Shown here in pieces: positions 2,902-7,984 of a stretch of 64,000 bases of DNA. Every line of letters begins with the position of its first letter. Position 1 is the stretch's first letter. The stretch is taken from the sequence record NC_004928.1; one strand, written 5' to 3'. The position numbers and the translations under genes are program-made. Under the pieces are notes generated by a model. It saw only the letters and a program-made list of their open reading frames with translations. It made no database searches and was not told where the DNA came from. This DNA comes from Escherichia phage RB69.

Positions 2902-3581
2902 CCTTCCATAGGGAATTCCAGATAAACTTGAGCGTTGACACGAATTTCATTGGTAATCTTTTTAACTCGGTCCGTATTACGAGATACACGTCCGAACCAA
3001 CGCCATCCATTACTAATTGCACGAGAACCAGTGTGCCATGTTTGCCAATCAAACTGAAGAAGAGTACGGTCTGGAGCTTCCCATTTCTCTAGTTCGCCTT
3101 TTTCGATTTTTTCGAGGACTTCTTTGTGCCACTGGCGATAGATAAGTTCGCCATCAGGAATCTGACTGAACTCTGCAGTTCCTGTTGCAAAATGAGTAGG
3201 ACACACATCAGCGTTAACAAGACCAAGAATATGTTCAGACAAATAGCGAGGATTGTCATAGTCAGGTGGTCCTGCAGTAATAAAGTGTTGACCAACCGGA
3301 ATATCTGGGCGTGGTACATCGTCATGGTGATAACCTGGGATAGCAGGATACCAACCAGGCATCAGCATGTGGACTCGTGAATCAAATACTACATCCGAGT
3401 CTTTCCAATCGTCAGGGAGATTTTGGATAAAGCTACGAGTAATTGGACCGCCGTTATCAAAAGCAAAATTCAAATCGCAATTAAAGAACATAGGCTCGTT
3501 TTTAATCTGGTCGTTTTTAATCGCATGAGCAAAACCACCTACTGCACGAGCTTGACTATTAAACACTTTAGAACTATTCAT
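2895..3581 (-). CDS. hypothetical protein
   Basis: 228-aa ORF in the minus-strand early block; no motif recognised. Confidence 0.55.
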   Translation of the reverse strand: MNSSKVFNSQARAVGGFAHAIKNDQIKNEPMFFNCDLNFAFDNGGPITRSFIQNLPDDWKDSDVVFDSRVHMLMPGWYPAIPGYHHDDVPRPDIPVGQHFITAGPPDYDNPRYLSEHILGLVNADVCPTHFATGTAEFSQIPDGELIYRQWHKEVLEKIEKGELEKWEAPDRTLLQFDWQTWHTGSRAISNGWRWFGRVSRNTDRVKKITNEIRVNAQVYLEFPMEGW

Positions 3582-3582
3582 A

Positions 3583-3888
3583 TTATTTTCCTCGACATTC
3601 TTTAATGAAATTTTCTAGATTGGTAGATTCAATAGCTTTTTTACGAGCTTCTGCGTGTTCTTCTTCAGACAATTTACGTTTATAATTGACCCAGACATTA
3701 TGGTCGAAACTAGTCGTGGCATATAATAACAATGCTCCAACGAATAGCAAAAACGGCGATAAGAATACAAAACCAGGAACACCATCCATATCGTAAGCCT
3801 TTTGTAATACTGCAACAGAAAGGGCTGCGTAAAAAAGTGATGCAAATATTGTTAAAAGACCAATTCGGTTGGTTTCGCCTAATTTCAT
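3583..3888 (-). CDS. hypothetical membrane protein, C-terminal FIxECR motif
   Basis: 101 aa, two predicted TM helices, ends ENFIKECRGK; early promoter just upstream. Confidence 0.6.
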   Translation of the reverse strand: MKLGETNRIGLLTIFASLFYAALSVAVLQKAYDMDGVPGFVFLSPFLLFVGALLLYATTSFDHNVWVNYKRKLSEEEHAEARKKAIESTNLENFIKECRGK

Positions 3889-3915
3889 AATATTCTCCTC
3901 ATGTTTAATAGGACT

Positions 3916-3945
3916 ACTATAATATAGTCCTATAATTGTGTAAAC
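3916..3945 (-). promoter_or_regulatory. sigma70-type early promoter inside inverted repeat (GTTTAC ... TATAGT)
   Basis: Minus strand GTTTACACAATTATAGGACTATATTATAGT; flanked by ataggact / agtcctat inverted repeat. Confidence 0.6.
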
Positions 3946-3957
3946 AGTTTTGCGAAA

Positions 3958-4914
3958 TTATTTGAAAGGTTTTACCATATGGAAATTTTGTTTGAAACGT
4001 TTGACGTAATCGTCATGTCCTAAACTTTGGTACATACTTACTACTTTGCTGTAGTTTTCCCAGGCATACTCACGGAACCAACCAGAGGTGATGCTTGTAC
4101 AGACTTTTTCCAATGCCATCATAAAACTGGCTTCAGGGTTAATTTTAAAGTCATTAGGAATTTGAGAACGTTCTAATGCTAGTACACATGATTCTTCGTA
4201 TACACCAGCCAATTTGACCATTTCTGGTAATGATTCGAACTTCTCGCGTGAGGTCATGACTTCAGAGCCGTCTTTCATATAAAATGTATACGCTGGACGG
4301 TCTGTTAGTGCAATGGCTTCATGAATAGTATCATGGTCATATGTATAGATGTCATCTTTAAAGAACGCACTTTTAGAAGTGTCAAGAACCGGGTGAGCAT
4401 AGTTCAAGGTTTCTTTCTGGCGTTTCAGCATAATTTCAGTAAGTTCATCGTTCAGTGTAACACCTTTACCACGAAGATACTGAATATGGTTCATAGTCTT
4501 TAAAAAGAATGGATTATTTTTCTTGAAACGATGAGACATCTTAATTGCAAGACATATCTCAGGAGTTGCCCAGTAAAACCCGTTCAAACGGTCTTTAGTC
4601 AAATTTTTCTTGGCGTATTTTAAAAGGTCATAAGAAGACGTGAAATCTTCAGGAGTGAGTTCACCGATTAATTCACGGACATTAGTGATTGCCGGAACAA
4701 TATATGCTTCAAAATGAGTTTCGCGTCCATTATGGAAGCATTTGAAAACTTGGACATCAGGGTTATCTTGGTGAACATATACACCCATCATTTGATTTTT
4801 GAATGCATTCCAAGAACATTGGTCCGCAATAAAGTCCCAATCGCTATTTTTGATAGCGCTAGAATCAATAAGACCGTGATAGTGAAGTGCACGAGAACCA
4901 ATAACCAACATCAT
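3958..4914 (-). CDS. hypothetical protein, possible nucleotidyltransferase fold
   Basis: 318 aa; N-terminal LVIGSRALHYHGLIDSSAIKNSDWDFIA resembles the hG[GS]...[DE]h[DE]h signature of pol-beta-type NTases (spacing longer than canonical). Confidence 0.6.
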   Translation of the reverse strand: MMLVIGSRALHYHGLIDSSAIKNSDWDFIADQCSWNAFKNQMMGVYVHQDNPDVQVFKCFHNGRETHFEAYIVPAITNVRELIGELTPEDFTSSYDLLKYAKKNLTKDRLNGFYWATPEICLAIKMSHRFKKNNPFFLKTMNHIQYLRGKGVTLNDELTEIMLKRQKETLNYAHPVLDTSKSAFFKDDIYTYDHDTIHEAIALTDRPAYTFYMKDGSEVMTSREKFESLPEMVKLAGVYEESCVLALERSQIPNDFKINPEASFMMALEKVCTSITSGWFREYAWENYSKVVSMYQSLGHDDYVKRFKQNFHMVKPFK

Positions 4915-4942
4915 AATATTTTCCTCTGATTAATTCATTAAC

Positions 4943-5194
4943 TTAAATTTCACGACATGCGATATCATATTCATCCCAGAGGTCATCGTGTGAAGCCTCT
5001 ACCAATGGAACGATTGTGCCGTTTATGTCTTCATTATAAGGGCAAATTGTACAGTGCGCATCTTCGAATCGGATGCCTTTGTGTTCAGATTTTTTATAAC
5101 GCATATCGAATATCTTTGCAAACTTTTCACGAGTAATGGTTTTAGCAACCACTTTGGTTCCGATACTTTCGTAATAAATCATTGTGGACTCCAT
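4943..5194 (-). CDS. hypothetical protein
   Basis: 83-aa ORF downstream of early promoter at 5211-5240. Confidence 0.5.
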   Translation of the reverse strand: MESTMIYYESIGTKVVAKTITREKFAKIFDMRYKKSEHKGIRFEDAHCTICPYNEDINGTIVPLVEASHDDLWDEYDIACREI

Positions 5195-5210
5195 TTAATT
5201 TGATAGGACT

Positions 5211-5240
5211 ACTATAACATAGCCCTATCTTGTTGTAAAC
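5211..5240 (-). promoter_or_regulatory. sigma70-type early promoter inside inverted repeat
   Basis: Minus strand GTTTAC(18)TATAGT within the tgataggactactataacatagccctatc element. Confidence 0.6.
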
Positions 5241-5244
5241 TGTT

Positions 5245-5442
5245 TTAGCAAGAATAACTAGATGATACCCAGCCTTGAACAGTAATACTATTATTTGATA
5301 ACGAGATTGCGTCCTGGAGATTCAGACCTGCGTTATCTTCAATCCATAATGTAACTTCTTCGCGTTCTTCTGTTGCAATTTGGAACAGGTTTTCCAGAGC
5401 AGCTACTGCCGTACGTACAGCACAATCTAATTCGCGAGACAT
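5245..5442 (-). CDS. small hypothetical protein, GWVxSSxxC C-terminal family
   Basis: 65 aa ending QGWVSSSYSC. Confidence 0.5.
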   Translation of the reverse strand: MSRELDCAVRTAVAALENLFQIATEEREEVTLWIEDNAGLNLQDAISLSNNSITVQGWVSSSYSC

Positions 5443-5451
5443 ATTGTTTCC

Positions 5452-5724
5452 TTAGCAAGTGTGAGAAGATGCGACCCAACCACCAGTTTCGAGGCTCAGG
5501 TTGTAGTCGTATTGGTAAACGTCAGCCCATTCAGCATAGCCGTTTTTTGTACAACGTTCAAGATCGGCTTTAAGATGTCCGGGTGAATGATAGGTTCCAC
5601 CCATACCATAAGCTGGGTACAAGTCGAATGTTGTGTTTTGTTTATCAGCAATTTCTTTGGCAGCCTCAATAGCTGCATAGATTTTTGCTACAGCTTCAGT
5701 CAGTTCGGTTTGTTCTTTAGACAT
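5452..5724 (-). CDS. small hypothetical protein, GWVxSSxxC C-terminal family
   Basis: 90 aa ending GGWVASSHTC; stop followed by GGAAACAAT and next ATG. Confidence 0.55.
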   Translation of the reverse strand: MSKEQTELTEAVAKIYAAIEAAKEIADKQNTTFDLYPAYGMGGTYHSPGHLKADLERCTKNGYAEWADVYQYDYNLSLETGGWVASSHTC

Positions 5725-5733
5725 AATGATTCC

Positions 5734-5835
5734 TTAGCACAACGCAGGAGACGAAACCCAAGCACCTTCAGTAATAACGTAACCATTACCTTCACGCTTA
5801 ACATCGCCACCATTATTTTCAATTTCATTTTTCAT
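5734..5835 (-). CDS. very small hypothetical protein (33 aa), GWVxSSxxC family
   Basis: Not in ORF track (below 60 aa); hand translation MKNEIENNGGDVKREGNGYVITEGAWVSSPALC; shares C-terminal motif and stop-RBS junction with neighbours. Confidence 0.35.
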   Translation of the reverse strand: MKNEIENNGGDVKREGNGYVITEGAWVSSPALC

Positions 5836-6040
5836 ACCACTGGGATACGATTTCACCCTTAGGATAATAAGTACGACCGCTACCATAATCACCTACAGAA
5901 AATGATACGGCATATTGGTCTGCGATCTTTGTTGCTTCTTCTTCGATACGTTCAGCTTGATTCAGAAGTTTATAAATTGCATCTGAAGCGGATTTGGCAT
6001 CATTAAATTCTGGTACTTTAATTTCGATAATCTTACTCAT
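5825..6040 (-). CDS. hypothetical protein
   Basis: 71-aa ORF; AAGGA RBS upstream of ATG. Confidence 0.5.
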   Translation of the reverse strand: MSKIIEIKVPEFNDAKSASDAIYKLLNQAERIEEEATKIADQYAVSFSVGDYGSGRTYYPKGEIVSQWYEK

Positions 6041-6396
6041 TTTCTACATTCCTTAATAAAGTTTTCTATTGTTTCATTTTCACGTTTAGCTAGGAGTTCA
6101 TTATAACTAATCATTTGAGAAGCGTAAACCTTTTTATTTTTCTTGTTATGGTTTATAAAATCGTAGTAAAAATAGACTACAGTACAAAATGATGCGATGG
6201 ATGCAAAGGCTTGGGTATACCGTAAGTCCTGCCATTGGTCTGTGAATCCGCCAGTGTTTCCTATAAATCCTAACACAACGCCGTCAATAAGAAATCCAAC
6301 TAATCCAAAGGCAAATCCCATGCCAATACTCATAATAAAAATTAGAATGTTCTCACCAAGAGAAGGCCATACGGTTAAGAGTTGAGGCTTTTGCAT
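6037..6396 (-). CDS. hypothetical membrane protein, C-terminal FIxECR motif
   Basis: 119 aa; hydrophobic N-terminal half; ends ENFIKECRK. Confidence 0.55.
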   Translation of the reverse strand: MQKPQLLTVWPSLGENILIFIMSIGMGFAFGLVGFLIDGVVLGFIGNTGGFTDQWQDLRYTQAFASIASFCTVVYFYYDFINHNKKNKKVYASQMISYNELLAKRENETIENFIKECRK

Positions 6397-6770
6397 CTTA
6401 TTTCCTTAACGAATTCCATAGCTTCTTCATATTCATACTTTTTAACAGCTTCATCATACTGAGCTTGGGCTTTTGCGCACTGAACTTTCCACTCACGAAC
6501 TCGAGCTCTGTGATGACGGCCTTGGTGCCAATATCCTACCCAATTAATAGGCATTAATAAAAACGGTACAATAAGTGGTGCGACGAACATTAATGAAAAT
6601 GCTGCATCAGACGATATAACTTCACTAGAATCTAAAACAGCTCCTATAATCATAAAGATTAAAAATGCTAAAGCTAAAATAGGGCCAAATAGTACTTCAT
6701 TAGGAATTAATTTACGTTTGTATTCGTATGCCCAGGGCTTACTTGGCATGTATAGGGTTGGCTTTGACAT
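6375..6770 (-). CDS. hypothetical membrane protein (EFVKEIRC C-terminal motif)
   Basis: Track ORF 6375..6800; start moved to internal ATG at 6770 (start uncertain); two hydrophobic segments. Confidence 0.5.
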   Translation of the reverse strand: MSKPTLYMPSKPWAYEYKRKLIPNEVLFGPILALAFLIFMIIGAVLDSSEVISSDAAFSLMFVAPLIVPFLLMPINWVGYWHQGRHHRARVREWKVQCAKAQAQYDEAVKKYEYEEAMEFVKEIRCKSLNS

Positions 6771-7341
6771 ATTCTCTACATTCCATAATAAATTGCTCAA
6801 GGATTAAATTGTTAGTGAAATTAGGACTAACAACCATAGTTTCATAAAGCGCATCAATAGCACTTAAAGCATCAACTCTTTTAAGCAAAGGCTTGCCTTC
6901 ATACATAGTTTCAGAATCGATGATTAACGTAAAGTAATATTTTTTATTATCGACTAGAACTTCTGTATCGATATAAAACATATTAGACCTCAGAAGCTTA
7001 TCTCTAAAACCATAATAATCTTCAGAGCGTTCGCTGATATATTCCCATTCAGTGTTTAAACAACAAACAGACCATGTAGGAGCAACGAAATCAGTGAATC
7101 TAATATCATGGTCTGCAACTAGTTTAGCAATAGCTCCGATATCATGAATCATAATACCTGGGGCTAATAAAGATTTTCTGCTATGGCTAGCCGTTTTCTC
7201 GGTGGTCTCATAAGAAGACGACCAGTACCATTTACGTCCGGTTGCAACATATCGTAATGAATCAACTAAAGACGTAGGTGGATTTACCTTATCTCGGAAC
7301 TCTTCAAACATTGAGTCAATATCATTATTTTGGTTTCGCAT
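6739..7341 (-). CDS. hypothetical protein with FIMECR motif near C-terminus
   Basis: Track ORF 6739..7362; ATG at 7341 follows a terminator hairpin and AAGGAG RBS. Confidence 0.55.
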   Translation of the reverse strand: MRNQNNDIDSMFEEFRDKVNPPTSLVDSLRYVATGRKWYWSSSYETTEKTASHSRKSLLAPGIMIHDIGAIAKLVADHDIRFTDFVAPTWSVCCLNTEWEYISERSEDYYGFRDKLLRSNMFYIDTEVLVDNKKYYFTLIIDSETMYEGKPLLKRVDALSAIDALYETMVVSPNFTNNLILEQFIMECREYVKANPIHAK

Positions 7342-7356
7342 GTTAACTCCTTTATT

Positions 7357-7384
7357 ATCCAAAAGGAGGACCGGAGTCCTCCGT
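7357..7384 (-). terminator. hairpin plus T-tract terminator
   Basis: Minus strand GGAGGACTCCGGTCCTCC followed by TTTTGG, directly after the 7391..7984 gene. Confidence 0.6.
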
Positions 7385-7390
7385 ATTATT

Positions 7391-7984
7391 TTATTTCAAA
7401 GAGTTAATATATTCTTGTACATCAGCAGAAGTGGTTTCGACACCAGCTGGAGTGCCATTGAACGTTTCAACACGAGTCAGAGTGTCTTCGATATCAACCT
7501 TAGTCAGTGCAGCGATTTCAATTACATCATCGGCCGTAGAGATACCAAGGGCATTGGCTGCTCGAGTTTCACGAATGTATTCGAGTTTGATTGCCAGATT
7601 CTGACGAGCATCATCAAGTTCAACCACCTTACGAGCAATTTCAATTCGCATAGCGGCATACCCGTCAGCTTTTGTATTAAGTTGTTCGGCAGTTCGACGA
7701 TACAGAAGACCAAGCTTAGCATGCATGGTAACATCTTGTCCTTCAGCCAAGAGCTTACGAATTTCACGTTCCTTAGAAGCGGCTTGCTTGTTCTTTTCAT
7801 TAACAAGTTCGCGAATACGTTTTTCTTCATTAATAGATTTAACAGAAGCCGTTTTTAGTTCTTTGATTTGGGTAATCAACTTATCTGCAGCTGCGTTATA
7901 CTGTTCTTCGACAGTCAGATTTTTAGCCATAGCAGTACCCAGTTTAGTGCGGATGAATTCAACAAGTTTCTTCAGTGTGTTCAT
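7391..7984 (-). CDS. coiled-coil protein, possibly PspA/IM30-like
   Basis: About 197 aa, predominantly helical with charged heptad-like pattern; start at ATG 7984 (track start 7999 is a TTG); family assignment is an unverified impression. Confidence 0.55.

Follow-up and report, generated by a model that had tools for sequence, protein, structure and literature searches.

Tandem Cys-tailed small-protein genes in phage RB69 and their linkage to a predicted nucleotidyltransferase gene

In the MenAT1/MenAT systems of Mycobacterium tuberculosis, a nucleotidyltransferase toxin, MenT, is paired with a short antitoxin, MenA1, and MenT1 is known to be blocked by a short protein antitoxin (PMC10435456). 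We analysed a stretch of 64,000 nucleotides (nt) from Escherichia phage RB69 (NC_004928.1; hereafter the window, position 1 being its first letter), in which three consecutive genes, called A, B and C here, encode small proteins that end in a Trp-x-x-Ser-Ser...Cys tail and lie upstream of the gene for a predicted nucleotidyltransferase, RB69ORF134c. In gene order and in the predicted fold of the enzyme, this phage module resembles MenAT and AbiE-type systems. RB69ORF134c carries the catalytic motif of those enzymes, hG[GS]...DxD plus a third acidic residue, and appears from its model to have the Pol-beta fold and GS...DxD motif in common with AbiE (AbiEi/AbiEii), ANT(2'') and LnuA.

The module departs from MenAT in that it is encoded by phages rather than by cells, in that it has 1-8 paralogous small genes rather than one, with an invariant W-x-x-S-S...Cys end, and in that its enzyme has a large extra C-terminal DUF7275 domain and no DUF1814 sequence match. 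In MntA-HepT (MNT-HEPN) and GlnD-PII, the target of the Pol-beta-type nucleotidyltransferase is a hydroxyl on a small partner protein that acts with the enzyme or has its gene beside it; the acceptor there is a Tyr of HEPN or PII, and these proteins have no sequence or fold relation to the phage family. What is new in the present case is the gene linkage, which is solid and was unexpected; the function that we attach to it stays a proposal drawn from sequence.

Linkage of the small genes to a nucleotidyltransferase gene

The genes concerned are as follows.
3958..4914, minus strand: RB69ORF134c, 318 amino acids (aa), DUF7277 plus DUF7275, predicted Pol-beta-type nucleotidyltransferase
5245..5442, minus strand: gene A (RB69ORF136c), 65 aa, isoelectric point (pI) 4.05, C-terminus QGWVSSSYSC
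5452..5724, minus strand: gene B (RB69ORF137c), 90 aa, pI 4.81, AYGMGGTY motif, C-terminus GGWVASSHTC
5734..6040, minus strand: gene C, a single 101-aa gene that the reference annotates as RB69ORF139c plus RB69ORF138c

Linkage was measured on 80 IMG/VR contigs of 8-371 kb (T4-like, rV5-like, Otagovirus-like and jumbo-sized) that carry a homolog of RB69ORF134c at 40-97% identity, with flanks of ±5 kb. One to five family genes lie on the same strand at most 3.5 kb upstream of the enzyme in 75 of the 80 contigs, and the tally over the whole set is 229 family open reading frames (ORFs) upstream against 10 motif matches elsewhere in the flanks. For the reverse test, a degenerate DNA pattern for AYGMGGxY gave 40 matches in family ORFs: the enzyme gene lies 20-1366 nt downstream in 31 and is adjacent in 2 more, it lies upstream in 1, and for 6 the downstream sequence is too short (<1 kb) to tell. 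The enzyme is thereby paired with the family at 33 of the 34 loci with enough downstream sequence. Together, these counts show a linkage that is polar and near-obligate for the family, which almost never occurs without the enzyme, and by both the 75/80 and the 33/34 measure a small same-strand partner gene stands immediately upstream, as in MenAT and AbiE systems. The enzyme does occur without the family, on 5 of the 80 contigs and as distant homologs in DSS3_VP1 and a Streptomyces phage.

Three further phages have the same arrangement, namely PHB09 of Pseudomonas (Otagovirus), phAPEC8 of E. coli (rV5-like) and KARL-1 of Acinetobacter, and the genes around it differ from one phage to the next. 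The surroundings of the pair are e.3/e.2 in RB69, gp41/gp61 in KARL-1 and a phosphatase and a Sir2-like gene in phAPEC8. A distant metagenomic phage has three members directly upstream of its DUF7277/DUF7275 gene, and another contig has eight. Neither the family nor the enzyme was found in the syntenic region of T4 (50-100 kb). In Enterobacter phage CC31, which is among the five contigs that have the enzyme alone, about 1 kb upstream of the enzyme (L038, 3515-4576) holds no plus-strand ORF of at least 40 aa, and relatives carry two family members in that stretch; the empty stretch may reflect a deletion or decayed copies.

Five positions of RB69ORF134c, G6 and S7, D25 and D27, and E69, are invariant among 43 homologs with 46-75% identity to the RB69 protein, and by sequence they correspond to the GS/DxD/E triad of Pol-beta nucleotidyltransferases. 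Many residues of the C-terminal domain are also kept in these homologs. The AlphaFold2 model of the enzyme (predicted local distance difference test score, pLDDT, 90; predicted template modelling score, pTM, 0.85) has a predicted MenT/ANT-like fold. A Pfam scan at E up to 1 matched DUF7275 and DUF7277 only, without a match to DUF1814/AbiEii, and NCBIfam and PADLOC gave nothing relevant for this protein. Within DUF7275, the invariant K125/H128 and D193-H194-D195..H198 are reminiscent of a metal-dependent phosphohydrolase; a structural search with the model returned no match that backs this likeness. We also considered a disulfide or metal site shared between the tails and a Cys of the enzyme, and rejected it: C243 varies where the family is present, and C272 is kept where it is absent.

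The nucleotidyltransferase next door, which the first-pass annotation of this DNA did not include, is the best clue to function. Other neighbours of the module and of enzyme homologs were recorded as well. In a distant metagenomic phage (L008/L009) the module sits among PTH2, RtcB, RlaP-like and HAD genes, of translation or RNA-repair type, and enzyme homologs lie near RNA ligase 2 and a phosphoesterase in DSS3_VP1 and near a polynucleotide kinase in Streptomyces phage Wakanda. Such neighbourhoods hint that the enzyme may act on RNA ends.

The Cys-tailed protein family

The first-pass annotation had picked out three consecutive minus-strand ORFs with the tails QGWVSSSYSC, GGWVASSHTC and GAWVSSPALC, and these are present as it described; a six-frame scan of the window finds the tail in these three, in two short spurious ORFs and nowhere else. 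It had also remarked on the terminal Cys after a Trp-rich motif as unusual, and had suggested a modification or metal site there. Across the 80 IMG/VR loci, this residue is very strongly conserved, ending 120 of the 123 distinct members, and W, S and S are invariant. The Ser-Ser pair lies 0, 2 or 3 residues from the Cys (31, 82 and 5 members, respectively), 47 of the 123 have one Cys in total, and the median member has 80 aa and a pI of 4.33.

Wider searches gave the same picture. Every intact protein among 105 matches from a word-indexed search has the terminal Cys. An exhaustive hidden Markov model (HMM) search of 1.84 billion representatives returned 38 clusters only, all small proteins of the same kind bar one frameshift-truncated gene B and one near-threshold match of 3409 aa; the terminal Cys is found in 29 of 30 newly retrieved representatives. 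Related phages (WG01, F48, ECLOM01, Assk) carry tandem arrays of 2-5 members, as a search there, proposed in the first-pass annotation, brought out; copy number ranges from 1 to 8 across loci, and the middle region varies. Five subtypes can be distinguished in these four phages, with the ends GAW[VI]SSSxMC, GGWVSSSxEC, GW[VQ]SSSxxC and GFW[FY]xSSMxxC and, in the fifth, an internal DWLNSSCYGEE plus a terminal IWxPSSC. These are small acidic proteins seen in phage and viral contigs only, and they are built to one plan, which combines an amphipathic helix at the N-terminus with a small beta-sheet and a C-terminal tail, G-G-W-x-x-S-S-x(0-3)-Cys-COOH, that protrudes. In the AlphaFold2 model of gene B (pLDDT 88.2), helices span residues 3-29, 48-60, 66-73 and 86-89 and strands residues 32-35, 43-46 and 81-85; the tail block has a lower pLDDT (73), consistent with an exposed tail.

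Scans of A and B against Pfam, NCBIfam and PADLOC found nothing, and the family profile matched only designed helical proteins among PDB sequences, at E of at least 0.03. Scores of the small proteins against the Phd/YefM/RelB antitoxin fold fall below homology level, the common part being a simple helix-hairpin-helix unit. Literature searches by RB69 ORF name, by PHROG and Pfam identifier and by motif turned up nothing relevant, and a comparative paper on jumbo phages does not mention the module; in the searches made, neither the small proteins nor their pairing with the enzyme came up in any paper or curated family.

The first-pass annotation read the three RB69 ORFs as local amplification of a small cassette and suggested aligning them as DNA. 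That alignment gives 45-50% identity among A, B and C, with a peak of 73% over the 48 nt of tail plus junction. At the protein level, B and C are 30% identical across 73 residues (E 4e-6), and A aligns pairwise to B over the tail alone; the A-type profile matches the B/C-type profile along its whole length (hhalign probability 90%, E 1.5e-6). Because the profiles align end to end, A can be taken as a short form of the same protein, and it is indeed the short subtype without the YGMGG loop. The similarity is therefore not restricted to the junction. Further, the invariant Ser residues are encoded differently by each copy (TCA/TCT/AGT, TCT/TCT and TCG/TCT), which means that selection acts on the protein rather than on a DNA junction. 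Dhakavirus, Marfavirus, Karamvirus and Aeromonas phages hold separate orthologs of every subtype, and the duplications are therefore ancient. As judged from these alignments, A (65 aa), B (90 aa) and C (101 aa) are ancient tandem paralogs, so that the amplification claim holds for the tandem paralogy but neither for recent timing nor for a small cassette, the units being genes of 65-101 aa.

PHROGs keep these proteins as two unrelated families of unassigned function: gene A falls in PHROG 4882 (E 1.1e-36), and gene B (E 5.7e-19) and the 71-aa half of gene C (E 2.3e-17) fall in PHROG 899, where the 71-aa ORF covers profile positions 134-201 and gene B covers positions 148-221. Here a single superfamily takes in both types and is connected with the DUF7277/DUF7275 enzyme. 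The exact gene A sequence is present in NCBI as AAP76038.1, among others.

Two further features of the arrays were seen. In one metagenomic locus (L010; 1335-1610, 2159-2467, 2690-2932), eight Cys-tailed genes alternate with a second small-protein family of the pattern ..KEAL.(I/V)..LLG.T.GD..Y..Y.EL...FPD.., pointing to a repeating unit of two genes in some phages. The proteins P0011 (vB_Eco_mar005P1, 5 contigs) and P0012 are frameshifted or truncated forms of gene B from other deposited genomes; single members would then be either dispensable or often mis-sequenced.

Gene C and the layout of the RB69 locus

The remaining features of the locus, in the order of transcription, are as follows.
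6037..6396, minus strand: e.3-like gene directly upstream of gene C, a putative membrane protein by annotation in relatives
5825..6040, minus strand: RB69ORF139c (NP_861829.1, exact match), 71 aa, 5' half of gene C
5836..5836, minus strand: extra base, a T on the minus strand in GTGG[T]ATGAAA, which frameshifts gene C
5734..5835 from its ATG, minus strand: RB69ORF138c (NP_861828.1, exact match), 33 aa, C-terminus GAWVSSPALC
5746..5748, minus strand: Pro codon CCT within the gene C tail; resequenced RB69 and relatives have TCT (Ser) here
5725..5733, minus strand: C-to-B junction, TGC TAA GGAATCATT ATG, within the 48-nt direct repeat 5719-5766
5443..5451, minus strand: B-to-A junction, TGC TAA GGAAACAAT ATG, within the 48-nt direct repeat 5437-5484
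5202..5229, minus strand: 11-bp hairpin just after gene A, -16 kcal/mol, z -3.6
4943..5194, minus strand: small RB69ORF135c-like gene (79-83 aa) that separates the array from the nucleotidyltransferase gene, PHROG 3723, outside the Cys-tailed family

The third unit had been described as a 33-aa gene; it is the tail of a 101-aa gene that one base of the reference splits. SA79RD and F27 have a single 306-nt ORF at the same place, encoding 101 aa with the C-terminus GAWVSSSALC, and the extra T at 5836 is the sole length difference from it. A 66-nt probe across this position retrieved 137 related records, none of them identical to the probe, and all 40 of the matches listed cover 65 bases and hence lack the extra T. 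Exact RB69ORF137c is present on 8 contigs and exact RB69ORF134c on 9 (NCBI plus Logan); the 71-aa and 33-aa products are confined to the reference contig. Three loci were looked at as representatives of the eight contigs with exact RB69ORF137c, and in all three the extra base is absent, T stands at 5748 and a 101-aa gene is called upstream of gene B. One of the resequenced loci, L175, shows just 3 differences from the window in 5.1 kb, at 5836, 5748 and 3268. The C/T difference at 5748 gives Ser for Pro, and hence the tail GAWVSSSALC with W-V-S-S-S restored. Position 3268, where the reference has C and L175 has A (minus strand), lies outside the locus described here.

Since the relatives and resequenced RB69 lack the extra base, gene C is an intact 101-aa gene, and its split most likely comes from an error in sequencing or from a change peculiar to the stock that was sequenced. 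The RB69 reference annotation is corrected accordingly: RB69ORF138c and RB69ORF139c are one 101-aa gene. A programmed frameshift was rejected, as the extra base is not kept in relatives or in resequenced RB69. It is also highly improbable that the 33-aa ORF is a real gene or a frameshift product and that the copies resemble one another through a DNA-level junction repeat; its start, at the ATG, does share 11 nt with the end of the 71-aa ORF, so that translation could restart by coupling, and DNA similarity does peak over tail plus junction, but that ATG has no Shine-Dalgarno sequence before it, the split and its two products belong to the reference contig, and protein homology runs across the whole genes. 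The 33-aa ORF by itself has no PHROG match. The 101-aa protein gave only two weak Pfam matches (XkdF protease and E217 gp32), which fell below the cut-off and were discarded. A 145-aa Logan protein (P0108) is a chimera: residues 1-68 are those of gene C as far as ..VSQW, unrelated sequence follows, and the breakpoint is at the same Trp as the RB69 reference frameshift.

The closest other genomes to the window are those of Mosigvirus phages, at 97-98.5% identity. Every gene in 3900-7400 is on the minus strand, where the order from 5' to 3' is e.3, gene C, gene B, gene A, the hairpin, the small unrelated gene and RB69ORF134c. Both junctions within the array read TGC-TAA-GGAA-nnAnT-ATG, with a 9-nt spacer and an AAGGA Shine-Dalgarno sequence that overlaps the stop codon; the first-pass annotation was right that they are alike, but its TAA-GGAA-ATG is a shortened form that leaves out the nnAnT of the spacer. 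Gene C begins in an overlap with the e.3 stop codon (AAAATGAGT). The genes e.3, C, B and A form a tightly packed run, each with its own AAGGA ribosome-binding site. A promoter-like site lies inside the e.3-like gene (6128..6100), and the annotation of SA79RD has a T4 middle-promoter-like site at the matching place. The hairpin after gene A overlaps a further promoter-like site, TTTACA-17-TATAGT (5239..5211; promoter scan), and SA79RD has a rho-independent terminator annotated at the place that matches it. Orthologs of the RB69ORF135c-like gene are found in WG01 (ORF126) and on resequenced RB69 contigs. No RNA family was matched in 3800-6900 by Rfam at E up to 1.

Upstream of the array, the e.3-, e.4- and e.5-like genes (6037..6396, 6375..6800 and 6739..7362, minus strand) have a common C-terminal motif, F-[IV]-x-E-C-R, seen as ..ENFIKECRK, ..EFVKEIRCKSLNS and ..EQFIMECREYVK.. 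and also in genes of WG01, F48 and ECLOM01. The e.3 motif codons ATT AAG GAA TGT double as the Shine-Dalgarno sequence of gene C.

Possible roles of the pairing

We lean, by a little, towards the view that the small proteins work together with the downstream nucleotidyltransferase RB69ORF134c. In this partner model all the small proteins would dock on the enzyme through the invariant tail that they have in common, and the variable acidic body, which differs among paralogs, would tune or direct it. A, B and C could be pseudo-substrate regulators, comparable to MenA1 blocking MenT1; they could be true acceptors, nucleotidylated on the Ser-Ser hydroxyls or on the terminal Cys, an idea modelled by analogy on MntA-HepT and GlnD-PII; or they could be specificity adaptors. 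The model draws on the invariant tail, which on otherwise divergent paralogs looks like a common docking or acceptor element, and on the polar order, with the small genes first, which matches antitoxin-toxin or substrate-enzyme operons. Several observations weigh against it: a hairpin or terminator, and sometimes another gene, stands between array and enzyme; the conserved residues of the enzyme are unchanged whether the family is present or absent; and multi-copy partners are atypical for antitoxins.

A more specific form of this proposal is speculative, and we hold it to be doubtful. In it, a MenT-like nucleotidyltransferase of several unrelated phage lineages acts on, or is gated by, the array of acidic proteins through the W-x-x-S-S...Cys-COOH tail. 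Either the tail would be nucleotidylated on Ser or Cys, or the acidic body and tail would mimic the acceptor end of transfer RNA (tRNA) and so hold back a tRNA-modifying enzyme until it is needed; in both versions different paralogs would set different specificities.

The strongest competitor, although we consider it unlikely, is that the small proteins are independent acidic effectors or mimics directed at the host, aimed at host defence or nucleic-acid-binding proteins and diversified by duplication, and that the enzyme is merely a neighbour in the same island. Small size and a low median pI, a position in the variable e.2-e.3 region that T4 lacks, a copy number of 1 to 8 with a variable middle region, the frameshifted copies in P0011 and P0012 and the hairpin or terminator that sets the array apart from the enzyme would all suit such effectors. 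By contrast, the polar, near-obligate linkage survives relocation across genome contexts and phage lineages, and an invariant tail on divergent paralogs fits a common partner better than many host targets.

The terminal Cys could alternatively be a metal or redox site, in which oligomers formed through the N-terminal helix pool their C-terminal thiols and carboxylates to bind metal or form disulfides. The Cys is always the last residue even though its distance from Ser-Ser varies, which points to the free thiol plus carboxylate end as the conserved feature, and one subtype has a second, internal W-x-x-S-S-C-Y-G-E copy. This reading, which is compatible with the partner model, nevertheless seems improbable. 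The Cys is the sole invariant one, and members with a single Cys argue against a self-contained metal site. Conserved His or Asp ligands are absent, as is a set of at least 3-4 conserved Cys/His ligands of the zinc-ribbon-like kind, and no known metal-binding fold was matched; the host cytoplasm, moreover, is reducing.

We give almost no weight to the idea that the genes encode precursors of ribosomally synthesized and post-translationally modified peptides (RiPPs), for instance with a lanthipeptide-like aminovinyl-cysteine (AviCys) ring made by dehydration and oxidative decarboxylation of the C-terminal Cys, as in epidermin-type precursors: tandem precursor-like genes with a common Ser-Ser-x-x-Cys-COOH end beside an enzyme gene recall such loci, but the annotated or Pfam-scanned neighbours in RB69, SA79RD and L008 include no dehydratase, LanD-type flavoprotein decarboxylase, radical-SAM (S-adenosylmethionine) enzyme or protease, the Ser-to-Cys spacing is not fixed, the gene B product is predicted to be a folded domain rather than a leader-core peptide, and the neighbouring enzyme is a predicted Pol-beta-type nucleotidyltransferase.

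Returning to the partner model, hypothetical small proteins gain a concrete proposed partner in T4-like, rV5-like, Otagovirus-like and jumbo-sized phage contigs, and DUF7277 and DUF7275 become linked to the MenT/AbiEii class of nucleotidyltransferases, whose bacterial members are toxins that act on tRNA. RB69 is easy to work with in the laboratory, and the T4 syntenic region, which is without the module, offers a natural comparison for it. Nucleotidylation of the tail, if it takes place, would be a new phage-made protein modification. If the pairing is functional, the module would be a phage-borne counterpart of the bacterial toxin-antitoxin architecture, with a multi-copy partner that has an invariant C-terminal Cys, and it would bear on how phages control translation or counter tRNA-directed defences.
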